Virus record (IMG/VR): IMGVR_UViG_3300045988_149498
Reading direction: 5' to 3' (one strand)
Length of the DNA stretch: 64,000 bases
From: a virus
Taxonomy: Duplodnaviria > Heunggongvirae > Uroviricota > Caudoviricetes
Shown: positions 1,203 through 53,582 of the stretch, in pieces
How positions within the stretch are numbered: position 1 is the first letter of the stretch
Layout of the letters: each line of letters opens with the position of its first letter
Notes under the pieces: generated by a model
Databases searched by the model: none
The model's input: only the letters and a program-made list of their open reading frames with translations
What the model was told of the DNA's origin: nothing
Made by a program: the position numbers and the translations under genes

Positions 1203-1535
1203 TTAGTTACCGCTAATAGCTCGGTTGTAATCATTAACGTTGCGATTCTTCCTGTTAATCCCCATCAGCATCGTTTCTGTATCGAGGATATACGCTGGCA
1301 GATCATCAAAATATTCACTGCTAAACTCTGGCATCCTGCACATAAATGCACTTTTTGGGTCAGGGTGGTTAACCTTTGTCGGCGTCGGCGTTAAATTCGC
1401 TGATCGACTCCCGGAGCAACCGCTGAGTGTCAGCAGGAATACGCTGGCGAACATTACCCGCCGCAACCAGTTGTTTCTGAACTTCAGCTTTTCGTTCCAT
1501 TTGCCTGTCAGCATATTTGGCTTGTTCTGATTCAT
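1203..1535 (-). CDS. Putative lipoprotein (lipobox L-S-G-C after hydrophobic stretch); start uncertain (M1, M8 or M28)
   Basis: ORF with RRVMFASVFLLTLSGC signal/lipobox; AGGAAG RBS before M1; overlaps upstream gene 1369-1791 out of frame. Confidence 0.5.
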   Translation of the reverse strand: MNQNKPNMLTGKWNEKLKFRNNWLRRVMFASVFLLTLSGCSGSRSANLTPTPTKVNHPDPKSAFMCRMPEFSSEYFDDLPAYILDTETMLMGINRKNRNVNDYNRAISGN

Positions 1536-1791
1536 TTTTCACTTCCTGGCTGTGAAAATGTTGCTCTGCTTTGTTCATCGTCTCAATGGTCTGGTTAAGA
1601 TCCATTATTGACTTATCACGTTCCTTAACAGCCTGATCAAGACTGCCAATTTTCTCCATGGCTTGCTTTAGCTGATGACGTTCCCATGCAAACCCAGCAC
1701 CAACAAGTGCGCAAATCAGAACAAGAACACCAGTAGCAGCAAGTTTCTCCTTCAAAGACAAAGCTGTTTTTAACGTAGAAAAGAATGACAT
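1369..1791 (-). CDS. Membrane-anchored coiled-coil protein, 140 aa
   Basis: ATG at M10 of track ORF preceded by AGGAGG RBS; one TM helix (LAATGVLVLICALVGAGFAW) then charged helical region. Confidence 0.5.
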   Translation of the reverse strand: MSFFSTLKTALSLKEKLAATGVLVLICALVGAGFAWERHQLKQAMEKIGSLDQAVKERDKSIMDLNQTIETMNKAEQHFHSQEVKNESEQAKYADRQMERKAEVQKQLVAAGNVRQRIPADTQRLLRESISEFNADADKG

Positions 1792-1830
1792 GTCTTCCTC
1801 CTGAAGAAAAATTATCAATGAAGTCCTTTG

Positions 1831-2619
1831 TTACTGTGCCGCTTTGTTTAATTCATCAAGAACAGAATCAGGAACCAAAGCGGCAACTGCGCTGGCTGTG
1901 CTGGCCTTATTTGCTGATGCTTCCGCAAGCGCGGTACCGATAGCATGGTTATAAGCAGTTATGGCTACGTTGGCGCTTTCATTCGCTCGTTCATACTGCT
2001 GTTGTAACGCAGTTGTGGGCGCTGTTGTCTGGTTGAAAACAACCCCAAACTGTTCAGTTGCTACTTTCAGAGATTCAATTTGCTCTTCTGTTAGTGCTGG
2101 TGGGGGAGTGGCAGTGCCGCCGCCTGAACCAGAGCCTGACGAGCTTCCTGAGCCAGTGTTAAGGGTCTGGTTAATCTCCCCCATAGCAGCGACTAAACTT
2201 GATGTATTAAGCGCGTTAACAGCGTCCTCAAGCGATTTAGTAATATTCACATCACCAATGGCAATAGAGATCGGCAGTTCTGAAACTTCTCGCTCATTAG
2301 CACGGCAGTAAACATCCCAACCAATATCGAGTTGAAGCAGCATTGACAGATCGGCATAACCAGCCAACAGGTCCGCGTGCTTAGTTGCCAGTTCTCCAAT
2401 GTTCGTTAAGCCGGTTGTGGTTGTTCTGATCGTTGAAACATAGCTGGTAATAGTGTCAGGATAGACAATTGTATCCAGAATTAATCCGGTCAATTCTTCT
2501 GCAAGCAGTTTTGCTGTGTTAGCACTGTTTCGTGCCGATGTTATGGCACCAGGTGTTTTCATCCCACCGGCGGCGGCCAATTTTTTATATGCGGATAACT
2601 GGTAGTCTTTTTCCAGCAT
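1831..2619 (-). CDS. Hypothetical protein with Gly/Ser-rich linker, 262 aa
   Basis: Internal ATG of track ORF 1831-2676 preceded by AGGAGATATC; GSGSSSGSGSGGG linker. Confidence 0.55.
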   Translation of the reverse strand: MLEKDYQLSAYKKLAAAGGMKTPGAITSARNSANTAKLLAEELTGLILDTIVYPDTITSYVSTIRTTTTGLTNIGELATKHADLLAGYADLSMLLQLDIGWDVYCRANEREVSELPISIAIGDVNITKSLEDAVNALNTSSLVAAMGEINQTLNTGSGSSSGSGSGGGTATPPPALTEEQIESLKVATEQFGVVFNQTTAPTTALQQQYERANESANVAITAYNHAIGTALAEASANKASTASAVAALVPDSVLDELNKAAQ

Positions 2620-2627
2620 GATATCTC

Positions 2628-2912
2628 CTAACTTACCTGAACCAGGCCGTCTCCGGACGCTACGGTAGATCCGCATGAAACAGGGTCACCAACGCATACG
2701 ATCCCTTTACCATTGACGGTAAACCATGCCCTGGTTGATATAGCTTGCCCACCGTGCGTACTGTTTCCATCGGTATGCTGTGCATATTGCTTACCATCAA
2801 CTAACACTTCGACTCCGTTGACTTTAAGTAGTGGTTCACTCTCTACAGGAGGCCTGGATGGGAATCCTCCGTGCCCCGAACAAATGCTGTCTTTTGTTGC
2901 AATACTTGCCAC
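2628..2912 (-). CDS. Small Gly-rich protein with PAAR-like repeat pattern, 94 aa
   Basis: ORF abutting downstream gene; repeated NGxxVLVxG / VNGKGIVCVGD segments reminiscent of PAAR cone proteins. Confidence 0.4.
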   Translation of the reverse strand: MASIATKDSICSGHGGFPSRPPVESEPLLKVNGVEVLVDGKQYAQHTDGNSTHGGQAISTRAWFTVNGKGIVCVGDPVSCGSTVASGDGLVQVS

Positions 2913-2993
2913 GCCATCACCAATTATTTGCTCTGATTTTCGTTATTTTAACTTAAGTTATTTGTGGGCTGTATGGCGTTTACTTATTACAAA

Positions 2994-3010
2994 ATTGCTC
3001 TAATAAATAT
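2994..3010 (+). promoter_or_regulatory. C1 repressor operator-like site ATTGCTCTAATAAATAT
   Basis: 16/17 match to P1 C1 operator consensus ATTGCTCTAATAAATTT; sits at start of uhr-hrdC-dmt operon. Confidence 0.6.
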
Positions 3011-3081
3011 TGTTTTTTGTGTCGTATTTTCGGTACCATTCAGCCATCGCCCTTCAATGGGCATTTGTTTGGAGTCGTCAG

Positions 3082-3366
3082 ATGCAGATGGAGCTAATAA
3101 GCCGCAAAGAGTTCGATAGCCGTGTAACCAGCGGTGAACTCGACAACTTGCAGGCTATCAAGGTGAAAGAAGGCTTTTGCCTCATTGGGAATCAGAGCGG
3201 AACAAATCGCGTTTTTATGCTTCGCCGTACGGATTTGAAGCCATTTGTCTGGAAGAACGAAATTGGTCCCAGCTCATACGCTCAAACGAGGGGGTGCCAC
3301 AACCTGGCCTTTTTCTACAAAGACGAGCTTTCTGTGGTTGATATTCAAGGGTTACAACATGTTTAA
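3082..3366 (+). CDS. Hypothetical protein upstream of rdgC homolog (P1 uhr position), 94 aa
   Basis: ATG after GGAG RBS inside track ORF 3010-3366; stop overlaps hrdC start (ATGTTTAA). Confidence 0.5.
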
Positions 3367-4264
3367 GCACTGGAAAAACATTACTATTTATAAACTTTCT
3401 CGTGAGGCGGATCTGACCGACTTAGAAGATAAAAAGAAAATGATCCTTTTCACGCCATGCGGTAGTCAGGATATGGCCAAGTTCGGTTTTGTATCGCCAT
3501 TTGGTGATAATTCCGAAGTTATCGCTATGCATGGAAATGGTTTTATCCTTGTTGAAGCAAAGCGCGAAACAAAAATTCTTCCCCCGCCGGTTATCCAGCG
3601 AGCTATTCAAGAAAAAATTGAAAAACTTGAGCAAGAACAAGCGCGTAAACTGAAGAAAACAGAGAAGGACTCCCTGAAAGACGAAGTTCTGCATTCTCTT
3701 CTTCCACGGGCTTTTTCAAAGTTTTCTGTTATCCAGGCGATCTACGACGGTTCAACTAAACGTATCTATATCAATGCCAGCGCGCGGCAGGCAGAAGATA
3801 TGCTCGCGCTTATGCGTAAGTCTCTGGGTTCTCTTCCTGTTGTTCCCCTGAGTGTTGAAAATCCCATTGAATTAACGCTGACCGACTGGGTACGTGATGG
3901 TAGTGCTCCACAGGGATTTCAAATGGGGGATGCGGCAGAACTTAAGGCAGTGCTTGAGGATGGCGGTATTGCCCGAGTGAAAAAGCAGGATTTGGGAAGC
4001 GATGAAATTTCCACACACCTGGAAGCTGGCAAGCTCGTCACTAAGTTGGCACTCGACTGGCAGAACCGCATTAAATTTACACTGGACCATAACTTCAGCC
4101 TTACCAGCGTCAAATTTGCGGATGAATTGCTTGAGCAGAACTCTGATATTGATAGTGAAGATGTTGCGCAGCGACTGGACGCAGATTTCTTCCTGTTGAC
4201 CAGTGAAATTTCGTGCCTGGTTGATGCTCTGGTAAATGCCCTTGGTGGAGAGGCTAAGCAGTGA
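3359..4264 (+). CDS. hrdC: RdgC-like recombination-associated protein
   Basis: Internal start [13 protein letters not shown]...; near-colinear similarity to E. coli RdgC from recall ([34 protein letters not shown]). Confidence 0.9.
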
Positions 4265-6279
4265 AAGAGCTGTGCTATGGATCTGTTTGCAGTGGAATTG
4301 AAGCCGCGAGTATTGCCTGGGAACCGTTGGGTATGCGTCCGGCGTGGTTTGCTGAAATCGAGCCTTTTCCATCTGCCGTTCTTGCGCACCGCTGGCCCCA
4401 TGTCGCCAACCTTGGCGACATGACAAAACTTGCCAAAAAAGTCTTGGCTGGGGAAATCGAATCCCCTGATGTGCTCGTTGGGGGAACACCTTGTCAGGCA
4501 TTCAGTATCGCGGGATTAGGTGGTGGGCTTGATGATGAGCGTGGCGCGCTAACTTTAAAGTATGTGGAGCTTGCAAATGCAATTGACGACAAACGGGCTG
4601 AGTCATTTCTCAAACCAGCAGTTATCGTCTGGGAAAATGTCCCAGGAGTCTTGTCATCGGCAGATAACGCCTTCGGATGTTTCCTTGCCGGATTGGCTGG
4701 AGAAGATGCGCCATTCGAACCAGGTGATCGACCTGAATCAGGAAAAAGTAACGCGTTCTGGCGGTGGGATGTCAAAACCGGTTGCCATGCTCCAAAGTGG
4801 CCGCAGTGTGGTTGTATTTATGGACCGCAGCGAAAAGTGGCCTGGAGAATCCTTGATGCCCAATACTTCGGAGTGGCACAACGACGCCGACGCGTGTTTG
4901 TTGTCGCAAGTGCTCGAACAGACCTCGATCCCGCAACGGTACTTTTTGAGTTCGAAGGCGTGCGCCGGAATATTGCGCCGAGCAGAGGCGAGGGGAAGGA
5001 AACTACCAGATATACTTCAAACATCGCTATCAGAACTTGCGATGATACAAACATAATTGCCATGGCACATGGGCAAGGAGGGGCTGAGATAAAAACCGAT
5101 AATTCGGCACCAACTTTGACATGTAACCATGAAGCACCAATTGTATTGCTCGGCGACGGTAGAATGCGCCGTCTTACCCCTGTCGAATGTGAAAGGCTGC
5201 AAGGTTTTCCTGATGGACATACATTGATCCCTACGGAAAAGCGTAAAAAAGTTTCTTCAGATGAACTGGCATACCTTCGCAAAAACTATCCTGATTTGAG
5301 CGAAGAAGAGGCCGCGATGCTTGCAGCTGACGGACCGCGTTACAAAGCGATCGGCAATAGTATGGCGATACCAGTAATGCGCTGGATTGGCGATCGGATT
5401 ACCAAGGCTGCATGTCGGCAGAATGAAGGGAATGAAACAAAAGAGCGAAAAGTTAAACCAGCGGCAGAATTCGAACGGTCCATATTCAAATGGGCTGGTG
5501 GAAAATTTGGTGTTCTGGAACAAATCTTTCGCTATTTGCCAGAAGGGAAGCGCCTGATTGAACCTTTTGTCGGTGGCGGAGCTGTCTTCATGAATGCCGG
5601 ATACAAGGAAAATCTGCTAAATGATGTGAATGCTGACCTGATTAACTTTTACAAGACTTTGCAACGTGAGGAACGTTCACTTATCACTCTGGCGCATCGG
5701 TTTTTCCAGGACTACAACACACAGGAAGGATACCTGGCAGTACGGAATGCGTTTAACAAACAAGTCTATGATGATTTACATCGCGCAGCGGCGTTTTTGT
5801 TCCTGAACCGACATTGTTTTAACGGATTGACGCGTTACAACCAGGCCGGTGAGTTCAATGTCGGTTATGGGAAGTATAAAACTCCGTATTTCCCATTGCA
5901 GGAGATGGAAGCCTTCCTTGGTGCGGAAGGGCGTTCTGAGTTTGTATGTGGTGATTTTGCTGCGGTGATTGAAGCTGCCGGAGAAGGAGATGTCATTTTT
6001 TGCGATCCGCCATATGAACCGCTTCCAAATACAGAGGGATTCACGAACTATTCCGGTCATGACTTTAAGTTTGAAGAGCAAAAACGCCTGGTGTCTCTGT
6101 TGACGGATGCTCATCGCCGAGGTGCAAAGGTTCTCATTACTAACAGTGGCGCGCCAAACATCAGAGAGCTTTATCATGACAATGGCTTCAGAGTGGAACC
6201 TCTTTTTGCCAGACGTTCTGTGTCTTGTAAGGGGGACACTCGAGGTGTTGCTCATGACGTTTTAGGTATATTGCTATAA
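4261..6279 (+). CDS. dmt: Bifunctional DNA methyltransferase: N-terminal C5-cytosine MTase domain plus C-terminal Dam-like N6-adenine MTase domain
   Basis: GTG start overlapping hrdC stop; motifs GGTPCQAFS and ENVPG (C5 MTase), then KWAGGK...[10 protein letters not shown] and CDPPY (Dam-like). Confidence 0.9.
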
Positions 6280-39965: not shown

Positions 39966-40106
39966 TTCAGTCAGAATCATCACACGCCCGGTACGGATGG
40001 ATCCCTTTTCAAATATTCCATGGACGGCACAGTCTGAGTACCGGGCGCTACCTTCAGTTGTATTGCTAAGCCGCCGCTGGTGGCTTTTCTTTTTTGTAGG
40101 GGCGCT

Positions 40107-40748
40107 ATGGATAAGAAAATATGCGTTGTTTCAATGAGCGTCGGCAAACCGGCGTCAATGACTGCTGCATGGATCAACAATGAGCTGATAATGGCTGAGC
40201 GGACCAGCTACCCTGAACGCCGCCGCGATATGGAACTCCAGCTGCTGCGCGAATTGCGAGAAAAAGAGGAAAAGGGTTTTATCGTGCTGGTGGAAGAGGA
40301 AAACAGCTTTATTACCGGTCGAGTTGGCCAGCGTGTAAGGTTGCGTGATCCCTTCATGAACGGCAGACCGGTACTGATTGAAGCAATGCAGATTTATAAG
40401 GAGCTGGAACGCCAGAAAGCAATCAAGTTACCGCGCAAGGAATCCGGCAAATACATCCTCCACCAAAGCATCTTCGATTCCGAACACGATAAAAAAGGCG
40501 ATGAATTTTTCAACATCAACTGGAGCGAAATAACGACAGAGCATGTTCTGACCTTACTATGTTGCTTTGCGACGGAATACAACAACGTTGCCAGCGCCGA
40601 CTACATCAGGTCAATGGCAGGAGAAGTTGAGGCCAATCAGGATACGTCGTTACTAAGTCCCCTAGTGAATATAATTCAAGCTACTCATGAAATTGCCGCG
40701 CGGAAAGTGCCTAAAGGTTCATTAACTGGTAAAGATAATTATCTTTAA
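40107..40748 (+). CDS. mat: Putative maturation control protein
   Basis: ATG 5 nt after AGGGG inside track ORF 40080-40748; position after ref as in P1. Confidence 0.55.
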   Translation: MDKKICVVSMSVGKPASMTAAWINNELIMAERTSYPERRRDMELQLLRELREKEEKGFIVLVEEENSFITGRVGQRVRLRDPFMNGRPVLIEAMQIYKELERQKAIKLPRKESGKYILHQSIFDSEHDKKGDEFFNINWSEITTEHVLTLLCCFATEYNNVASADYIRSMAGEVEANQDTSLLSPLVNIIQATHEIAARKVPKGSLTGKDNYL

Positions 40749-40755
40749 ACTTATT

Positions 40756-40774
40756 GGGCGCTAACTATGCGCCC
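40756..40774. terminator. Bidirectional terminator-like hairpin between mat and PIN-like gene
   Basis: GGGCGC-TAACTAT-GCGCCC between convergent stops. Confidence 0.45.
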
Positions 40775-40780
40775 ATTATA

Positions 40781-41731
40781 CTAATCAATAAATACACGGA
40801 ATGTCTCCAGCATCCCTTCAGGATCTTTATCCTCGTCACCTAATGATATTAGTCTTCTGGCAAGAAGTTTCACATCATCATCATCTTTGATGTAACCAAC
40901 CTGATCATTTTCAAAATAAATATCAATTATTTTTAGGATTTGCTCTTGTGTAAAGTGAGTGAGCTTTAATAATTTTGCTACAACTCGATGTGTTGTAGCA
41001 AAACTGCCAGAGTGTCGTAATTCATCTATAGTGAGATTAACTTCCATTTCCACCAAGTTACTAGCTTGAGGAAAGTGCTCGCCTATAAACTCTGATAAGC
41101 GGGAATAGATATGTGGTTCTGAATTTTTCTTTTTTTTCCACTCATGCTTCAAATATTCATTCATATCATCCTTTATAAAGGCACTTTTATAATCACCATC
41201 TTCAGTTATGATATATATATCCTCACCGTCTGGTATCGCTTTTAGCAAACATTCCCAATTAACTGCGTCACCATATGATTTATTTTTGCCAGGCGGGTTT
41301 CCAAGATCAAATCGAAGTTTCCCCTTATCTATTGTTTCATCATCAGCCTCTATTTTAGATGCTGCATCAAAAATCCTTTTAATTACAATATCGGCAGCCA
41401 AAGCCTCCTCTTTAAACAATTTCTGGATATCTGTAATAATTTCATTCTTTAACCTACCTGCTTCTATAACCTTATCATTAAATTGTGAATGCTTTTCATG
41501 TTGCCTAAAAATCTGGGGAAGCGCGGGCTTATAATCTTTTGTTATTTCCTTTATGGTTTCAGAGAGAACTTTAGAACGATTCCTCCAGAACTCATTCACT
41601 AAAAGCTCTGGTAGCCAAAGTTTTAAACGACCATATTGATGTAAGGCAAATACTTTATCCAGCTCATCTAGTTTATCTTTACCCATCCTGTAAAATTCCA
41701 AATATAGATTTGTATCAATAAAAACATTCAT
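40781..41731 (-). CDS. PIN-like nuclease-domain protein with C-terminal helical domain of unknown function (316 aa); candidate defence/abortive-infection effector
   Basis: N-terminus MNVFIDTNLYLEFY (canonical PIN motif), later GDAVNW and IITEDGDY acidic motifs; AT-rich; occupies the site where P1 has res-mod. Confidence 0.7.
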   Translation of the reverse strand: MNVFIDTNLYLEFYRMGKDKLDELDKVFALHQYGRLKLWLPELLVNEFWRNRSKVLSETIKEITKDYKPALPQIFRQHEKHSQFNDKVIEAGRLKNEIITDIQKLFKEEALAADIVIKRIFDAASKIEADDETIDKGKLRFDLGNPPGKNKSYGDAVNWECLLKAIPDGEDIYIITEDGDYKSAFIKDDMNEYLKHEWKKKKNSEPHIYSRLSEFIGEHFPQASNLVEMEVNLTIDELRHSGSFATTHRVVAKLLKLTHFTQEQILKIIDIYFENDQVGYIKDDDDVKLLARRLISLGDEDKDPEGMLETFRVFID

Positions 41732-41792
41732 ATCACATCCTCATTAAGAGTAATTTAGGCCACTCTAAAAAATAAAGTGACCTAACAGGAAA

Positions 41793-42041
41793 TCAATCAG
41801 CATTCAGGAGCAATGCATTATCTATGATGATCTGCTCCCATTCTTCGAATGCCCGGTCGCGGACGCCCTGGGGAACGCTGTTAGTTTTGAAATCGACGAC
41901 CGTACGCCATTTCCCGTCCGGACGGTACATGCGCAGAGCTTTACTTCCCCCTTCCCTGCGCACCTCAACGTTATGCTTATCAGCAAACTCTTGTAATGCT
42001 CGTAGCGTCCCATGCTTTACTGTGTAGTATCGCTTTTTCAA
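41793..42041 (-). CDS. lxc: Lxc/Bof-like C1 corepressor modulator
   Basis: 82-aa ORF at end of darB operon, size and position as P1 lxc. Confidence 0.65.
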   Translation of the reverse strand: MKKRYYTVKHGTLRALQEFADKHNVEVRREGGSKALRMYRPDGKWRTVVDFKTNSVPQGVRDRAFEEWEQIIIDNALLLNAD

Positions 42042-42478
42042 GTTTTCTCTCCAGCCTGTGCTAAGGCTTCAACTTCCAAATCGTAAGACTCAAACTCATA
42101 GTCCTGGTCGTCAACCTCTTCAGGCACTGGCAGTAAATGCCAGGCTGAGTATATCTGACCATTATCAAAACGCTCCTGGCTGTAGAGCGTCGCAGCTATG
42201 AGCGTCAGCGCCGGTCGGTCATAACGGTAAATTTTGCGAACGTCACGGTCAACGAGACGACCGAAATTACCATAACCGCGCTCCAGTAATAATTTTTTAA
42301 TTTCCGGCCAGTATGGGCCATAGCTGCGGTACAGGCGGGGATTTTTCAGTAATCGCCCGCGTAGCCCTGACAGGAAGAAATCAACGTATTCGTCTTCTGT
42401 CTTTCCTAACAACGCTGTACGGAGTACCGCCTCAAGATATGTTTTATTCGGTTTTATTGTATCAGATAGTGTGGCCAT
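42038..42478 (-). CDS. ulx: Protein upstream of lxc
   Basis: 146-aa ORF, ATGA overlap with lxc, immediately downstream of darB. Confidence 0.6.
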   Translation of the reverse strand: MATLSDTIKPNKTYLEAVLRTALLGKTEDEYVDFFLSGLRGRLLKNPRLYRSYGPYWPEIKKLLLERGYGNFGRLVDRDVRKIYRYDRPALTLIAATLYSQERFDNGQIYSAWHLLPVPEEVDDQDYEFESYDLEVEALAQAGEKT

Positions 42479-42511: not shown

Positions 42512-45500
42512 TTATGCGTATTGTTGGATGACGGCCAGAACGTCCGCCACGTTGTGTTTTGTCTCGATAATCCACCAGTTACCCGGGAAATCGCTGTTTT
42601 TCGCCTTCGCTGGCAGCCAGCGAGCGCCGAATTTCGCCTTGATTGCGTCTTTCGCACGGAAAAGAACGCCTTTCATGCCTGAGGCTTCCTGAAGCCCAAA
42701 TACCTCGCCAGCGGCGAATTTTGGTGCGTACATCATCTTCAGGTCGGCGGTGGATACGCGATAATTCAGACCAAGAGACTGAGCTATGCTGGTGGCATCA
42801 CCCTGTATTGATGATAACTCTTCTTGTTTCTCGTTTCTGGCGGCAATTTCTTCCTCCGTGATGTTGCCAAGGGCCAGGTTTATCCGATCAGCGTCGGCCT
42901 GTTTCTCTTCATCGGTGCGTCCGGCAAGAACCGTGTTAACTCTCTGCAATATCTCCACATGATTCTTGCGCATGCTGAGCAATTCCGGCGTAACCTCGTT
43001 AAGATCCACCAGCCCAAGGATGGCAAGGTCGGAAAACATTGATACCAGGTTGTAGGTCATGCGATAGCTGAGTTGACCATAGGCTGATGGCAACTTCACC
43101 GCATCTATTTGATAGGCATCCATAAATTTAGAGCCGTCGTTTACGACATCCGCAATTGCAGGTGTGATTTTCCCTGTGGTGGCGGCCTCCCTGATTGCTG
43201 TTACCCACGATTGAGTCAGCGCGGCGACTGCATGATTCAGATTGGCTTCCCGTTCTGCTGCGATGCGCGCGCTTGCTGCGTCCATTGCCTGCTTGATCTC
43301 GTCTTTATTGCTGTAAATGCCAATGGTGCCAAACTGTGCTGTGGTGATCTCATAATCTGACGCCCGGAACTCATTGGTACCGAAAATGGCATTGGTGACT
43401 TCAAGTTCAGAATCCCCGTTACGAGTAGCCCCCTGGTTTGTTTTTTCCGGCATTCTGGCGATCGCATCCGCTATTTTCTCCTGAATTGCTTCAGGGGATA
43501 GCGTATCTCCGTATGACGCGATTACATCGCCATAATTGGAGCCAAACAGTTCAACCAGGAATGTTTCTGCCGAACGGATCTGGCGGTTATTCCCTTCCGA
43601 CATCATACCAAGCACCCATTTTGCAATTGACGACTTCAGCGCGCCGTCACGGCGATCCGGGTAAACCGCATGCTTCAGTGGGTCCGTATAGGTACCAACA
43701 AAATCAATGCTATAGCCTGACTCTGTAGTCTGAACGCCGTATGAGTCAGTGATTTTGATCATGCCGCGCTGCTGGAAACGGTAGAAATCGTCACAGGAAA
43801 TGATGTCGTTAATCCCGGCGATGGAGACGCCACCACTGATTTTCTGCATAACAGCATCTTCATCGGGAGTTACATCAACCTGTTTATCCAGCGTCTTCAC
43901 ATCCCAGTTACCCGATTTGGTACCTTTGAAGGTAAAGATAATCTCCACGTCTGCGCGCTGGCTGTCGAAGTCCAGAGACTTAATGCGGACGATATCACCG
44001 GCACAATCATAGTATTGGCCTACACGCCATGAGCGATCGCCGATAACAAGGAACTCACTCGCATGGTTAACCAAGTCAGGATCAACATCCAGAATGCCTT
44101 TATTTATTGCATCCTCCACCAGCGGGCGCAGGCGTTTGATATCCGTCGCGGCCTTCTGAGTACGGTTCAATAATTTCTCATAGCGGGAGATGGCTTGAGA
44201 GATATTAGCCTTGCGCTGAATGGCGCTTTTCAACGACGCGCGATACTGTGCTAACAACGTACGGTCTGTGTGATGGACGCTACCCCAGCGGGCTTTCCAG
44301 TCTGCGTTATCAGCTGCTTTGGCCATTACCGCCTGTTTGAATTTGGCGACCTCGGTGGTGGTCTTTTCAAGTTCCGCTTTGCTTCGCTCTAATTCAGCGG
44401 TAAGCACCTCCACATCCTCACCAGCTGCGTGCTGCGCCTTGATGTAGTTCTGAAGGTCGATAGTAGCCTGTTCTTTCTGGCGAGCGCGTTGCGCGGCTTT
44501 CGCCTTATCCATTTGAACCTGCATCATTGCCAGACGTTCACCGTCATCCTTCGCGGTATACATCTGCATTTCGATCATATCATTGGCGTCGGCGTTCTCC
44601 ATTTCTGACTTATCTGAACGGAGGATATCGGAGATCCAGCCTGCTTTACGCTTCAGCGTCTTCAGTCGGTATTCATCGAAAGAACCCTTGCCGCAGTAGT
44701 AGTGAACGCGAACGCTTGCACGGTTGGAGCCAACTCGGGCACCGCGACCGTTACGCTGTGCGATACTGGCTGGTGTCCATGGCAACGTCAGATGATGGAT
44801 GTCAGTCGTTCCTCGATGCAGGTTGATACCGACCTCGGCCTTTTTGTTGCAGATGATGATCGGAGTCCGGCCCTCCTGGAAGTCGGCAGCAATCTTTTCC
44901 AGCCCGCCCAGCGACATTTCATTTTGCTGCGCGATATAGGCGTCATACAGAGCCATTTGCTCGTTGTATTTCGCTATCTGCGCATCTGTTGGTTCATCCG
45001 GTAGCTCTTTCGGCGGTTTAACAGCTTTCAGTTTCTGACCGGTTTTACCTGCCTCGGCAACCGTCTGAGCATTCAGGATCCCCACCTTTGAAGGTTCAAG
45101 GTTAAGAGCATTGCAGATAATGCGCTTGAGCTTCTGGTGCTGCGTTTTTTCATCGGTGAAGATGATTTGCTTACCTTCCGGGAAAAACTCCTTCAGCGTG
45201 GCAATCAGCTTCGCGTATTTGGGCGTAACGGGGTGAGTTACGGTCTGTTCGTCAATGCCAAACCTGGCCAGGCGCTTATTCACTTCCTGCTCGAACGCTT
45301 CCGGAACCTGCAACTGAATAAACTCGCCCTTATCTATCAGGGAGTATTGCGATTGCTGCGTGATTGAATCATCACTGTCGTCGTCTTCGCTGGTGGCTTG
45401 TTTAGGCAAACTGTCCGCCAGCTGCTGCACCGCATCGGCGTACTCCGGCAGGAAACGATAGGTGATCCGACGATAGTACAGGTCCATGTCAGTACATACG

Positions 45501-48500
45501 CGGTCCATATCCCTGATTATTGAGAAGATCGGACGGGCTTTCTCGTGCTCAATCACGCCGTCTTCATTGACCGAGGTCGTTACGCCATTGTTGGCTTTGG
45601 CCGCCGCTTCCGCCTGCTGACGCAATTCTTCATACGCCGCCAGTTGTTCTTCAGTAAGTGGTGCATCCTGCTGGTGTTCGTCCAGCTCCGGGATCTCCAC
45701 GGTATCCTTAACGTCTTCCGCCGTTTTAAGCGTTACCCAGCGATGGAATATACCGCGCAGCGCATCAAGGTTTTCAAAGCCCACCAGCGCCATTTTTTCT
45801 TCAACTTCACCGCTGATTTTCTGTACCGTTTCCAGCCTGGTCTTGCCGAAGAATTTAACGAAGTCATCAGGACCGTAGATCCCCATCTTCTGCCAGTATT
45901 CCTTCGGCAGAACATGAGAAAGCATGTTGTATGCATCGATCGGGGTGTTAACGACTGGCGTTGCAGTCAGGAGAACCGGCCCGCGCCCGCCATTCTTTTT
46001 CATCAGGTACGCGTTTTTAATTGCCATATCCCGCGCCGATTGCGCCACCGCGCTGGTGGGCAGATAGGCCAGTTGTGACGCTTCGCGACCATTTTTATAG
46101 CTATTGCGGTAGTTGTGACCTTCGTCGGCGATCACACTATCGAAGCCCATATCCTCAAAGTACGGATACTTCTCTGCTTTTTCGGTGCCGGTATCTGAAT
46201 ACTCCGACAATACCCGGCGACGCGCGGCCTCTTTGCGGTGGGAGTCGGAGTCCATTGCGCTGGCTACGCGCCCGGCGGCAACGAAGTCATAAAGCATATC
46301 CTGTGCATGCTCATCTACGGTGTCATCACGTAGCGGAATGCGGGCGTATTGTTCTTTGGTAAACACGACTGCACGGTAATTTGAGTGCGGGATCGCGTTC
46401 ATTCGCGCGGTGATAGTGGCTTCATCTGCCAGTTTAAGAGCATCACGCATAAGTGGAGTGCCATCAGTACCAAGGACAGGTTTACCGTTCTCATCGAGCA
46501 CCGACACCTGGCGAATCTGATCGCCATCCATCAGCACATCAAGACCGACGAACAGGTAGTTACTGAATGCCGCTTCACTCAGGAACTCTTTTGCTTCGTA
46601 ATACCAGTTTTCCAGCACTGATTTAGGCACTACATAAGCAGTACGGGTGGAGCGACCGTTCTCATAGTTGAACGCCTCAAGCGCCAGCGCGGTCGTCGTT
46701 TTACCCAGCCCGGTGCCGAAGCCCAGGATGCCGCGCCCATCTTCAGACAGTCGTCGCACCTCGCTATTCTGGTAATCAAATGGCTGGCGCTTACCGCTTA
46801 ATCCCTTCAACCCAAGCGGATCGCCAGAGTGTTCATACGGAATATTGCTATTGAAAACATCGTTGTATTTGGCAACCAGCTCATCGTAGCGATCGTGTGT
46901 CTTGATCCACTTATTGAACTGGTCCTCAAGCAGTGCCATCTGCTCGCGGTAGCCGTTCGCCGTCGCGCTATCTTTGCCACCGATACGCGCACCATTGAGA
47001 TACTTTTCCAGCTGTGCCGGGAACCCGGTCGCGTTTTCACCTGATTTACGGTCCCACTCGTAGCGGATCTCGCCTGTTTCTTTATCCTTGCGCTGGACGA
47101 CACCGTATCGGTGTCCGACGAACAGACCATCACCACCGTGATAGGTGTCAGAAACCATTTCGTCGCCTTCCAGCTGCACTGACTGCACATAGCGCAGATC
47201 CGGATAGCCGTTTTCCTGCAAAAACTCCAGAATGACGGAACGGTCGAACCAACGGCTATTGAGCTTAAAGCGGATATTCTCTGCTGGCGTCTTGATGCGC
47301 TTCTCTTCGATCGCTGCCAGCTGATTAAGGACGTTGTTCTTTACTGGACCGTCGGGGAGCGTGGCGAGGAATTCCTGTTTTGGAACCACTATCTCGTTAA
47401 TGTCGCCGCTGGTGGCGCGGGCGAACGGAACAATCCCGCCATACGGCGAAACCGCAATACCTGGGGTGCTGGCCAATAAATTAAGCAACTCTTCATCACT
47501 GGCTGGCAGTTCGCCGGTAAACGCAAGGCGGAAATCATCGAGCTGGATTGGATCGCGGGTAAGATCGCTATAGAGATAACGCAAGGTGTCCTGATAGCTG
47601 GTGGAGTCATAACTTGCGCTGGAATCATGCGTAACCAGCTTTCCTGTCAGCTCGTCAGAAATAGTGCCATCCAGCTTAATTGCACCACGGAAAGCAAACC
47701 AGGCGCGCGCACCGCTTCCCGATAATTTAGCTATCGGACCGCGACCGGGGTTACCAAAACGGTCAATCTCTGCCTGCAAACGGGATACCAGAGAAAGGCG
47801 CTGCTGTTCGATTTGTTCAGCACTATGCCCGGCGGCCTTCATATCCTGATATTCAATTAACATCCGGCCAATCATTGCCCCGCGATACAAGCGTTCACGG
47901 TATTTTTCAGGCTGGCTGTTAATCCAGTCCACCAGCTGCACCATATCGTCGCTGATTGATGTGGTGTACTTATCGCGGACATTTGCCATCTGGGTAAATG
48001 TCATACCGAGACGGCCTTCTGTTGTAGTCAGGTTACGCTGAAGAGCCTCCCAGCTATCCGCGCCATAACTGGCAGCATCAATCTTAAGCTCCTTACCAGC
48101 ATCAGCTTCAATCCAGCGACCACCAGCATATTTTTGCCATACGCCATTAATCAGGCGCATTTCCCCTTCATCAACAACGTCTGCTGTCGGTGACGGTTCA
48201 GCCATATCTAGCAAAGACCAGTCGATACGACTTTCGAAACGATGAATCAGCTTCGCTTTAAGAGCCTGGTTATCAATCTGCCCGTCGGCACGAACCTCAA
48301 TACGCCCCTGGAAGCCCTTTTCCTGGGTACCATGAACAAACCGGCGGCCGTCCTTTTCAAACCACTTGCCAGAAATAAACGTTGGCCAAAGCACATTTGC
48401 CAATTCAAGAGTGCTTTCATCCACCAGGGGGATTTTCTCAGCCATCTCTGCCGGATGTTTGCGCATCAGCACCACATCTACGACCGTACTGGTCCCGTTT

Positions 48501-49279
48501 GCGTCAAAAGTACCGGTAGGCAAGCGGTGGGCACCAAGAAATTCAGCTTTCCGTGATAGGCGCAGGCGTAACCGCTTCATGTTTGAACCTGAAACAATGG
48601 ACGGCGGCACAATCACGCACATGAATCCGCCTGGCTTTATCTTGTCCAGCATGCGGAGCATGAAGTAAGAACCCATGTCCGTTTCTTCTGCGTAAGGCTT
48701 ATCGATGTTGCGTGTGTTATCACGACCACCGAACGGAACGTTACCCACAACATGGTCGAATGAATCGTTAGGCGTGCTTACAGCCAGCTGTTCGAACGGG
48801 GAAATCTGTACGCTGTCTTCCGGGTGTAACAGCTGGTTTATACGACCGGAAACACTGCTGATCTCAGTTGCGGTCATCACCGTACCAACCGGTTTTGTCT
48901 CATTAAAAACGCCGGTGCCCGCCGATGGTTCCAGAGTGTTACCTACGTCCGCGCCATAGAGCTTCATGATCTCCCAGACACCTTCAGCGATAGGCTTTGG
49001 TGTGTAATATTCGGAGACGGACCCGCCAATGCCGCCTTCACCGGTGTACCCAGCCAGGATCTGGCGCTGTTCATCTGTCAGTGTCGCGCCGTCCACCAGC
49101 GAATTAAGCAAATCTATCGCCTTCTGATTCGCCTCCCGGCGCAGTCGGTCATAGCTTTTGCCTTCCACCTTTTCCACGCCGTATTTAATCGGCGCTCGGT
49201 GAGATGTTATTGCCCTAATGTATTTCAATATTTCGCTGACACTTGAACAGCGAAACACCCCCATAGATAGCTTGTTCAT
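42512..49279 (-). CDS. darB: DarB antirestriction protein (methyltransferase-like plus helicase domains), 2255 aa
   Basis: MTase-like motifs EPSAGTGVF / GNVPFGG; helicase Walker A GFGTGLGKTT and DEGHNYRN; size equals P1 DarB. Confidence 0.9.
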   Translation of the reverse strand: MNKLSMGVFRCSSVSEILKYIRAITSHRAPIKYGVEKVEGKSYDRLRREANQKAIDLLNSLVDGATLTDEQRQILAGYTGEGGIGGSVSEYYTPKPIAEGVWEIMKLYGADVGNTLEPSAGTGVFNETKPVGTVMTATEISSVSGRINQLLHPEDSVQISPFEQLAVSTPNDSFDHVVGNVPFGGRDNTRNIDKPYAEETDMGSYFMLRMLDKIKPGGFMCVIVPPSIVSGSNMKRLRLRLSRKAEFLGAHRLPTGTFDANGTSTVVDVVLMRKHPAEMAEKIPLVDESTLELANVLWPTFISGKWFEKDGRRFVHGTQEKGFQGRIEVRADGQIDNQALKAKLIHRFESRIDWSLLDMAEPSPTADVVDEGEMRLINGVWQKYAGGRWIEADAGKELKIDAASYGADSWEALQRNLTTTEGRLGMTFTQMANVRDKYTTSISDDMVQLVDWINSQPEKYRERLYRGAMIGRMLIEYQDMKAAGHSAEQIEQQRLSLVSRLQAEIDRFGNPGRGPIAKLSGSGARAWFAFRGAIKLDGTISDELTGKLVTHDSSASYDSTSYQDTLRYLYSDLTRDPIQLDDFRLAFTGELPASDEELLNLLASTPGIAVSPYGGIVPFARATSGDINEIVVPKQEFLATLPDGPVKNNVLNQLAAIEEKRIKTPAENIRFKLNSRWFDRSVILEFLQENGYPDLRYVQSVQLEGDEMVSDTYHGGDGLFVGHRYGVVQRKDKETGEIRYEWDRKSGENATGFPAQLEKYLNGARIGGKDSATANGYREQMALLEDQFNKWIKTHDRYDELVAKYNDVFNSNIPYEHSGDPLGLKGLSGKRQPFDYQNSEVRRLSEDGRGILGFGTGLGKTTTALALEAFNYENGRSTRTAYVVPKSVLENWYYEAKEFLSEAAFSNYLFVGLDVLMDGDQIRQVSVLDENGKPVLGTDGTPLMRDALKLADEATITARMNAIPHSNYRAVVFTKEQYARIPLRDDTVDEHAQDMLYDFVAAGRVASAMDSDSHRKEAARRRVLSEYSDTGTEKAEKYPYFEDMGFDSVIADEGHNYRNSYKNGREASQLAYLPTSAVAQSARDMAIKNAYLMKKNGGRGPVLLTATPVVNTPIDAYNMLSHVLPKEYWQKMGIYGPDDFVKFFGKTRLETVQKISGEVEEKMALVGFENLDALRGIFHRWVTLKTAEDVKDTVEIPELDEHQQDAPLTEEQLAAYEELRQQAEAAAKANNGVTTSVNEDGVIEHEKARPIFSIIRDMDRVCTDMDLYYRRITYRFLPEYADAVQQLADSLPKQATSEDDDSDDSITQQSQYSLIDKGEFIQLQVPEAFEQEVNKRLARFGIDEQTVTHPVTPKYAKLIATLKEFFPEGKQIIFTDEKTQHQKLKRIICNALNLEPSKVGILNAQTVAEAGKTGQKLKAVKPPKELPDEPTDAQIAKYNEQMALYDAYIAQQNEMSLGGLEKIAADFQEGRTPIIICNKKAEVGINLHRGTTDIHHLTLPWTPASIAQRNGRGARVGSNRASVRVHYYCGKGSFDEYRLKTLKRKAGWISDILRSDKSEMENADANDMIEMQMYTAKDDGERLAMMQVQMDKAKAAQRARQKEQATIDLQNYIKAQHAAGEDVEVLTAELERSKAELEKTTTEVAKFKQAVMAKAADNADWKARWGSVHHTDRTLLAQYRASLKSAIQRKANISQAISRYEKLLNRTQKAATDIKRLRPLVEDAINKGILDVDPDLVNHASEFLVIGDRSWRVGQYYDCAGDIVRIKSLDFDSQRADVEIIFTFKGTKSGNWDVKTLDKQVDVTPDEDAVMQKISGGVSIAGINDIISCDDFYRFQQRGMIKITDSYGVQTTESGYSIDFVGTYTDPLKHAVYPDRRDGALKSSIAKWVLGMMSEGNNRQIRSAETFLVELFGSNYGDVIASYGDTLSPEAIQEKIADAIARMPEKTNQGATRNGDSELEVTNAIFGTNEFRASDYEITTAQFGTIGIYSNKDEIKQAMDAASARIAAEREANLNHAVAALTQSWVTAIREAATTGKITPAIADVVNDGSKFMDAYQIDAVKLPSAYGQLSYRMTYNLVSMFSDLAILGLVDLNEVTPELLSMRKNHVEILQRVNTVLAGRTDEEKQADADRINLALGNITEEEIAARNEKQEELSSIQGDATSIAQSLGLNYRVSTADLKMMYAPKFAAGEVFGLQEASGMKGVLFRAKDAIKAKFGARWLPAKAKNSDFPGNWWIIETKHNVADVLAVIQQYA

Positions 49280-53093: not shown

Positions 53094-53582
53094 GTGGCAC
53101 AACGCGGTGTAAACAAAGTCATCCTGATTGGTACCCTGGGGCAAGACCCGGAGATCAGGTATATACCAAATGGCGGCGCGGTCGGAAGACTAAGCATCGC
53201 AACGAATGAATCATGGCGCGACAAGCAAACGGGCCAACAGAAAGAGCAAACAGAATGGCATAAAGTCGTTTTGTTCGGAAAACTTGCTGAAATTGCGAGT
53301 GAATATTTACGAAAAGGTTCTCAGGTCTACATCGAAGGGAAACTTAAAACCCGTAAGTGGACAGATGACGCCGGTGTAGAACATTACACGACGGAAATTA
53401 TCGTCAGCCAGGGCGGCACCATGCAAATGATCGGCGCTCGCCGTGACGATTCACAGTCCTCAAATGGCTGGGGGCAATCAAACCAACCTCAAAACCACCA
53501 GCAATACAGTGGTGGCGGTAAACCTCAGAGCAACGCCAATAACGAACCTCCAATGGACTTTGACGACGATATTCCGTTTTAG
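53094..53582 (+). CDS. ssb: Single-stranded DNA-binding protein
   Basis: OB-fold N-terminus, Gly/Gln-rich linker and acidic tail DFDDDIPF; GTG start. Confidence 0.95.

Follow-up and report, generated by a model that had tools for sequence, protein, structure and literature searches.

What does a gene for a lone nuclease do in a P1-like phage-plasmid, at the place where P1 itself keeps its type III restriction-modification (RM) genes? The question is raised by a stretch of 64,000 nucleotides (nt) from the IMG/VR virus record IMGVR_UViG_3300045988_149498, here called the window, in which the slot between mat and lxc holds one gene for a 316-residue protein of the PIN_12 family (formerly DUF4935). 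Our answer, to which we give an even chance, is that the gene encodes a single-gene abortive-infection RNase with a DARNA-like sensor and is accessory cargo of P1-like elements. That it has a role in anti-phage defense at all is probable, judging from genomic context and domain logic; that RNA is the substrate of the PIN domain, given such a role, seems slightly less probable; and that single-stranded DNA (ssDNA) triggers the protein is a tentative suggestion by analogy, which may well be wrong. An earlier note on this DNA had proposed an undescribed single-gene anti-phage or abortive-infection effector. The single gene, its slot and the lack of a partner speak for that proposal; the function, and with it the abortive outcome, would follow from context and domain logic. 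"Undescribed" was too strong, because the PIN_12/DUF4935 family was described by bioinformatic means in 2017 (PMC5499597) and the gene is already annotated as PIN publicly.

The coding sequence (40781..41731, minus strand) spans 951 bp including the stop codon and begins with ATG. Its product starts MNVFIDTNLYLEFY and contains the further acidic motifs that the earlier note had pointed out, GDAVNW at residues 154 to 159 and IITEDGDY at residues 174 to 181. The same note took the protein for a PIN-like nuclease with an inserted helical segment and a C-terminal domain of roughly 130 residues, and this description holds. In Pfam, PIN_12 (PF16289) matches residues 3 to 181 over the whole model (positions 1 to 172 of 172) with an expect value (E) of 1.9e-16 and 61.4 bits against a cut-off of 32, and PIN_8 also scores above its gathering threshold (E 1.7e-13). 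The NCBIfam scan of the protein gave no match, and the PHROGs match was to a family of unknown function. The AlphaFold2 (AF2) model has a mean predicted local distance difference test (pLDDT) score of 91.3, and a fold search with it returned the VapC-type PIN fold. The N-terminal nuclease domain (residues 1 to 185; 41177..41731, minus strand) has a VapC-like core with a long helical insert (helices 42 to 64 and 81 to 107), and from about residue 186 to residue 316 (40784..41176, minus strand) the models are all helical, forming a domain whose conservation in the family goes hand in hand with that of the PIN domain. No solved relative turned up when PDB sequences were searched with the protein and with family profiles.

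The protein is a full member of PIN_12, with a hidden Markov model (HMM) score above threshold, a PIN core with 4 to 5 conserved acidic residues and a monocistronic gene. Family features that it shares are a long helical insert behind strand 2, some 320 to 350 residues in total and an unexplained C-terminal region of about 130 to 180 residues. Within the PIN-like superfamily, PIN_12 is placed in the VapC-like group (Matelska et al. 2017, PMC5499597). A homolog search of 5.8 billion proteins gave 162 matches; the best 120 of these are almost all 312 to 350 residues long, with at least 90% coverage and 34 to 93% identity, and Enterobacteria, Vibrio, Aeromonas and Bacteroidota are among the hosts listed. 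When 50 homologs with 33 to 90% identity to the window protein are aligned, D6, N8, E47, R52, D114, R140, P146 to K149 (a PPGK loop), G154, D155, W159, D178 and D180 are invariant in the PIN domain, as are W198, F215, L238 and N275 in the C-terminal half. The predicted acidic catalytic set (D6, E47, D114, D155, D178 and D180) is intact.

Such conservation bears on the idea that the reading frame is a decaying or functionless hitchhiker, for which one could cite the AT-rich foreign DNA and the minority distribution of the gene. The only deposited phage with the PIN gene is JL22 (90% nucleotide identity, annotated as "hypothetical protein"), and between the window and the JL22 allele there are 59 synonymous versus 21 non-synonymous codon differences. 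The gene is therefore under clear purifying selection, a pattern that effectively refutes the hitchhiker idea. In addition, members from different phyla keep the full-length architecture and have invariant catalytic residues, the fold prediction is confident, and a ribosome-binding site and a likely terminator are present. We consider a functionless reading frame very improbable.

Is the gene then part of the P1-like core, or is it exchangeable? The cassette (40749..41794; 1,046 bp, about 35% GC) was delimited by homology breakpoints and by a trough in GC content, which is 0.34 to 0.36 over 40650-41850 versus about 0.45 to 0.54 in the flanks. Breakpoints were determined by pairwise BLAST against P1, SJ46, RCS47, Ro157c2YLVW, MH422554 and JL22. 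On the right, homology to all compared P1-like relatives restarts at 41790-41795, which is the lxc stop codon; the left breakpoint coincides with the mat stop codon (40744-40748) for SJ46 and RCS47 and lies at 40618-40677 for the remaining relatives. Because the breakpoints fall there, the interval 40749-41792 singled out by the earlier note is exactly the variable slot, and the alignment with P1 and its relatives confirms the locus swap that the note had expected, with breakpoints at the slot edges. Reading frame, GC content and strand likewise agree with its description of one AT-rich 951-bp gene on the darB-ulx-lxc strand.

The left conserved flank is mat (40080..40748, plus strand), whose 3' end is polymorphic among P1-like elements. 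The right flank is lxc (41793..42041, minus strand), directly upstream of the PIN gene and in the same orientation, followed on that strand by ulx (42038..42478) and darB (42512..49279). The plus-strand neighbors upstream, cre, c8/cra, ref and mat, and the minus-strand neighbors lxc, ulx and darB are all genes of P1. Within the 3' end of mat (40618-40748, plus strand) the breakpoint lies at 40618, 40677 or 40744-40748, depending on the relative; hence, the recombination that swaps the cargo sometimes carries the last 24 to 43 or so codons of mat along.

The cassette is 100% identical to CP057937.1. We found the PIN gene in 23 PLSDB plasmids and in 30 complete E. coli genomes out of 5,426, in every case on a plasmid of 90 to 130 kb, and it occurs as two alleles, with at least 99% and about 90% nucleotide identity. 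Public annotations call it a "PIN domain-containing protein" or a "DUF4935 domain-containing protein." The lxc-ulx backbone is present in 699 of the 5,426 genomes, so that about 30 of about 699 backbones (roughly 4%) carry the PIN gene, which is therefore an accessory and not a core gene; the earlier note had regarded it as a variable insert in the same way.

What else occupies this slot? In P1 (NC_005856), the interval between mat (ending at 3468) and lxc (starting at 9750) holds res and mod, as the earlier note had it, plus an IS5; promoters of lxc and mod are annotated in this region. In SJ46, the slot contains a 373-residue RelA/SpoT protein (2472-3593 of locus L010, plus strand), the sole RelA/SpoT gene at the locus. 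Its counterpart in the literature is CapRel-SJ46, whose anti-phage activity has been proven experimentally (PMC9712102), and it matches the PADLOC entry PDC-S33 (7e-87), which means that at least one "candidate" PDC entry of PADLOC corresponds to an experimentally validated system. MH422554.1, recorded as "Punavirus P1," carries an unannotated 346-residue DUF2971 reading frame (2049-3089 of L013, minus strand) that matches the PADLOC candidate PDC-S31 (E 2e-16), and the slot of RCS47 is empty, with a gap of 39 bp only. Finally, Ro157c2YLVW (NC_050153.1, L012) has genes for an EAL-domain protein (1486-2085, minus strand), a putative cyclic di-GMP phosphodiesterase, and for an AraC-family regulator (2338-3060, plus strand). 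Another "P1" with different slot content, OP279344, was left out; its difference is an engineered res/mod deletion.

These occupants bear out cassette replacement at a variable slot. As to the further claim of a defense hotspot, the PIN cassette shares its slot and both junctions (mat stop and lxc stop) with res/mod of P1 and CapRel of SJ46, and the RM and CapRel occupants support it; the EAL and AraC genes of Ro157c2YLVW do not. The slot is thus a defense hotspot mainly, not exclusively. A 2025 survey of defense cargo in P1-like phage-plasmids lists type III RM, dGTPase, PrrC and CapRel and does not list the PIN protein (bioRxiv 10.1101/2025.09.12.675607).

CapRel-SJ46 resembles the PIN protein in more than its identical mat-lxc slot, since each combines in one polypeptide a toxic enzyme at the N terminus, as predicted for the PIN protein, with a regulatory or sensor domain at the C terminus. 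They share neither sequence nor chemistry: CapRel is a toxSAS enzyme that pyrophosphorylates tRNA, whereas the protein studied here is a PIN nuclease.

Homologs outside P1-like elements also tend to lie beside defense genes. A 64%-identical homolog (from Klebsiella pneumoniae, according to one source) is part of a CP4-like integrative element with HsdM, HNH, Mrr, ScoMcrA and CbtA/CbeA, and a Serratia homolog directly adjoins a Hachiman pair (HamA and helicase). On a Paraburkholderia plasmid the gene lies between a Vsr-Dcm-Eco29kI RM system and a pair of SIR2 and ATPase genes, and on a Xanthomonas plasmid it adjoins an ABC-three-component (ABC-3C) system. The Vibrio homolog is located between genes for giant DUF4011/AAA_11-12/MTES_1575 (helicase-nuclease) proteins, the Salegentibacter homolog next to EndoU, DUF3800 and YopA genes, and the Labilibaculum homolog near a DUF4145 gene. 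Phages carry relatives as well: the Pantoea homolog is inside a prophage, relatives are found in 28 IMG/VR viral contigs, and the P2-like Ralstonia phage RSA1 has a PIN_12 moron, ORF18 (313 residues; 3968-4909 of L014, plus strand), on the opposite strand among tail genes, between those for the baseplate spike and for virion morphogenesis. The association of PIN_12 with defense is good, though anecdotal.

These contexts also speak to the view that the nuclease serves its carrier phage, by degrading RNA or DNA of the host or of competitors or by counter-defense, as an extension of the darB-ulx anti-restriction operon. The PIN gene is indeed co-oriented with darB-ulx-lxc and directly downstream of it, and Ulx and DarB have anti-restriction functions according to the P1 annotation. 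Yet close and distant homologs reside in non-phage chromosomal islands beside defense systems, the same slot holds bona fide defense genes in P1 and SJ46, and the cassette is low-GC foreign DNA with sharp junctions, outside the conserved dar operon. We find a service to the carrier phage quite unlikely.

Could the gene be one half of a toxin-antitoxin pair? The gene unit gives little room for a partner. A Shine-Dalgarno-like GAGGA (41738..41742, minus strand), read from the sequence, lies 6 nt upstream of the ATG, and 61 nt separate the stop codon of lxc from the start codon of the PIN gene. This gap contains a 13-bp hairpin with a U-rich loop (41755..41785, minus strand), detected in a scan for terminator-like structures, with a folding energy of -21.6 kcal/mol (z = -4.0). 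It is kept in JL22, where its single G-U pair has become G-C. It is not a canonical terminator, because no U-run follows it, and is possibly an attenuator or RNA-stability element; read-through transcription into the PIN gene probably comes from the lxc region. Between the convergent mat and PIN genes, a GC-rich hairpin read from the sequence (GGGCGC-ATAGTTA-GCGCCC, 40756..40774), also kept in JL22, is likely a bidirectional terminator. An antisense reading frame of 108 residues inside the PIN gene (41208-41534, plus strand) is most likely a by-product of AT-rich sequence.

In the cassette we found no free small reading frame, no tandem repeats and no credible Rfam match, all Rfam matches being far below gathering scores and rejected for that reason. 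A partner antitoxin, whether a protein or a ToxI-like RNA, was thus rejected for want of a small reading frame, a repeat or Rfam support in the cassette, and no neighboring gene recurs across ten homolog neighborhoods. The earlier note had named a cognate antitoxin as a finding that would speak against its proposal; neither the cassette nor the ten contexts contain one.

A VapC-like addiction or plasmid-stabilization toxin, with its antidote elsewhere or in the same polypeptide, would fit the VapC-type PIN fold, the location on a low-copy plasmid prophage and the CbtA/CbeA toxin-antitoxin pair in the island of one homolog. VapC of VapBC systems differs from the PIN protein in having a VapB gene; here the 61-nt gap separates the gene from lxc upstream, and convergent mat follows downstream. 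Canonical VapC toxins have 130 to 150 residues, whereas the PIN protein has 316, with a helical insert and a conserved extra C-terminal domain. Moreover, no small reading frame or RNA antitoxin adjoins it in the cassette or recurs in the ten contexts, most homologs are chromosomal and in defense islands, and about 96% of P1-like elements do without the PIN gene. Addiction strikes us as improbable.

What, then, is the C-terminal domain for? Two PADLOC models match it. PDC-S34 aligns with residues 227 to 298 (model positions 299 to 370 of 384, E 1.2e-11) and PD-T7-3 with residues 178 to 281 (model positions 293 to 398 of 432, E 7e-5). When 34 C-terminal domains of the family were scanned alone, PDC-S34 matched all 34 (best 1.4e-17) and PD-T7-3 matched 6; weak matches to LmuA, JetB, KwaB and SduA, each in 1 or 2 of the 34, were set aside as noise. 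With PDC-S34, an unvalidated candidate, the protein shares a C-terminal module of about 70 residues (model positions 299 to 371 of 384), whereas the first 298 or so model positions are unmatched. The RSA1 protein has no PDC-S34 match at its C terminus, and its residues 124 to 200 weakly match PADLOC PDC-M07B.

An exhaustive HMMER search found the domain in 1,386 clusters at 50% identity, and the best 150 of these are all PIN-fused or fragments; fragments of PIN_12 proteins were all that a homolog search with the C-terminal profile gave. A longer PIN_12 subfamily (about 370 to 440 residues; L029-L031 and L034-L036 from IMG/VR, L015 at 4992-6161 and L016 at 4992-6101) has an insertion of about 50 to 60 residues between the first C-terminal helix and a block of about 85 residues, which is therefore a discrete unit. 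In the window protein this block covers residues ~230 to 316 (40784..41044, minus strand) and has conserved S241, F244, H248, N275, Q277 and W/Y280. We tentatively relate the C-terminal domain to PDC-S34 and to the sensor of DARNA, and consider the block a putative nucleic-acid-sensing module. A literature search on PDC-S34 and on "Dandelion," a further name that is explained below, found nothing.

PD-T7-3 is the same system as DARNA, a dodecamer with an N-terminal HEPN RNase domain and a C-terminal helical domain (residues 160 to 456) that binds ssDNA via F368, D372, N402, Q403, Y405, W406 and N408; DARNA cannot do without F368 and W406, and Q403 forms hydrogen bonds that are specific to the base (bioRxiv 10.64898/2026.02.22.705581). 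The system is activated by ssDNA, for which presentation by a viral ssDNA-binding protein has been described, to cut tRNA at the anticodon, and its phenotype is abortive infection. We sought its sequence via the PD-T7-3 cloning primers (Vassallo et al. 2022, Table S8, PMC9519451). These primers anneal to the conserved flanks of a variable hotspot in prophages, which we take to be P2-like, on IMG/VR contigs of mostly 30 to 45 kb or so (L045-L212), and the two primer sites lie between 183 bp (empty) and 6,181 bp apart. The cargo of this hotspot is very diverse and includes a 436-residue Ser/Thr-kinase-like reading frame, reading frames of 459 and 444 residues, and recurrent ones of 197, 230 and 256 residues. 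Locus L079 has a primer spacing of exactly 2,183 bp but different cargo, and was rejected as PD-T7-3.

A degenerate DNA pattern encoding the published contact residues matched one locus, L254 (IMGVR_UViG_2585427757_000010; motif at 4962-5084, minus strand). Its 455-residue reading frame has all 15 published landmark residues and matches PADLOC PD-T7-3 at 3e-168. PDB entries 9wxf (with 12 chains), 9wwz (C-terminal domain) and 9wx2 (HEPN domain) are of the identical protein, which they call "Dandelion." DARNA, PD-T7-3 and Dandelion are thus three names for one system, apparently from independent groups.

With a DARNA family profile built from an alignment of 41 sequences, hhalign matched the PIN C-terminal profile at a probability of 74.8% (E 2.6e-5, 89 columns), equating residues 230 to 316 with DARNA 354 to 447; with the full-length PIN profile, that region came up again at 59%. 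Both families conserve the columns of I235 (I359 in DARNA), S241 (S365), F244 (F368), N275 (N401), Q277 (Q403) and W/Y280 (W406), so that counterparts of both essential aromatic residues and of the base-reading glutamine are among them. The register places I281 opposite R407, and Y405 and N408 have no conserved counterpart in the PIN family. In a local HMMER test with 1,000 shuffled decoys, the DARNA HMM scored 72% of PIN-family sequences above every decoy, always in the same region. Homology of the PIN C-terminal block to the DARNA sensor subdomain is, on these alignments, probable but unproven.

The likeness extends to the plan of the protein, a single chain with an N-terminal effector of RNase type and a C-terminal helical domain, encoded in a variable hotspot of a temperate phage. 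The PIN protein differs from DARNA in having a PIN and not a HEPN effector, without the RX4H motif, as well as a C-terminal domain of about 130 residues versus about 300. It is not a member of the PD-T7-3 family, since it matches the PADLOC model at positions 293 to 398 only.

Several observations weigh against a defense RNase with a DARNA-like sensor. When compared with one DARNA sequence in place of the family profile, the PIN profile reached a probability of only 20% in hhalign, and the reverse HMM beat its decoys in only 15% of DARNA sequences. The register puts the conserved H248 in the place of D372, and N402 is not conserved. Only the distal 90 to 130 or so residues of the DARNA C-terminal domain are matched, and the interfaces of the DARNA dodecamer are therefore not represented in the PIN protein. 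The PIN C-terminal profile did not retrieve Dandelion/DARNA among PDB sequences at E values up to 10, and a Foldseek search of the PDB with a model of the C-terminal domain alone (pLDDT 90.3) gave generic helical-repeat matches (E above 0.3) and no Dandelion/DARNA entry, whose presence in the library is unclear. No full-length PADLOC match of the protein was obtained, a literature search on PIN_12 function found no experiment on any member, no defense genes were seen around the Aeromonas homolog, and the EAL and AraC cargo of Ro157c2YLVW is not obviously defensive.

If the link to DARNA were misleading, the C-terminal domain might sense a phage protein instead. The gene would then encode a single-gene abortive-infection PIN nuclease whose C-terminal domain acts, as in CapRel, as an autoinhibitory "cis-antitoxin." The precedent is close at hand, in that CapRel occupies the same slot in SJ46 and a phage capsid protein binds its C-terminal domain directly (PMC9712102); the PIN C-terminal domain is small and resembles helical repeats, which commonly serve to bind proteins, and the DARNA homology is only moderate. 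However, the most conserved C-terminal residues map to the base contacts of DARNA, which would be unexpected for a rapidly coevolving protein-recognition surface, and conservation of the domain from Enterobacteria to Bacteroidota suggests a generic ligand. A protein trigger is, to our minds, unlikely, while being the most plausible of the alternatives considered.

How might an abortive-infection RNase with a DARNA-like sensor work? We hypothesize that the VapC-like PIN domain at the N terminus serves as effector, being an endoribonuclease that depends on Mg2+, and that regulation or sensing falls to the helical domain at the C terminus. The protein would be made in the lysogen, probably via read-through from the lxc promoters, and held inactive. 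An incoming heterologous phage would then provide a nucleic-acid cue, which by analogy with DARNA could be ssDNA exposed or presented by a ssDNA-binding protein (SSB) of non-host type. The C-terminal module would bind the cue through the conserved surface of F244, H248, Q277 and W/Y280, and the PIN site would be released or assembled, probably by oligomerization. Cleavage of tRNA, rRNA or mRNA would stop translation and abort the infection, protecting sister cells that carry the plasmid.

The window also encodes a P1-type SSB (ssb, 53094..53582, plus strand), a 162-residue protein that is very similar to E. coli SSB and ends in DFDDDIPF. If sensing were as in DARNA, this host-type SSB would fit self-tolerance of the carrier phage, which is speculation on our part. 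Also speculative, and in our judgment more likely wrong than right, is the thought that the C-terminal block of about 85 residues is a portable sensor that reads ssDNA bases and is attached to varied effectors, HEPN in DARNA, PIN here and another N terminus in PDC-S34. These proteins would then form a modular superfamily of ssDNA-activated abortive-infection nucleases, and P1-like elements would tolerate the PIN version because the host-type SSB with which they replicate would not offer ssDNA to the sensor.

Since databases already contain both the gene and its family, there is no novelty in the sequence as such, and cargo swapping at P1-like hotspots is expected. New are the functional hypothesis for PIN_12 and the link of its C-terminal block to PDC-S34 and to the ssDNA sensor of DARNA, a link not mentioned in the DARNA preprint (bioRxiv 10.64898/2026.02.22.705581). 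We regard the PIN cargo gene as a clearly defined lead for experiments, not as a discovery already demonstrated.

If the PIN cargo protects against phages, the large PIN_12/DUF4935 family would gain a function, and defense catalogs would gain a one-gene system that they now miss. About 4% of E. coli P1-like phage-plasmids, including those of O157:H7 and O111:H8 lineages, would then arm their hosts with the PIN gene. And if the DARNA-like tail senses ssDNA, its presentation by viral SSB would be a reusable sensing principle and not a one-off trigger, and the HEPN and PIN proteins would be a natural effector-swap pair in which the coupling of sensing to nuclease activity could be dissected.

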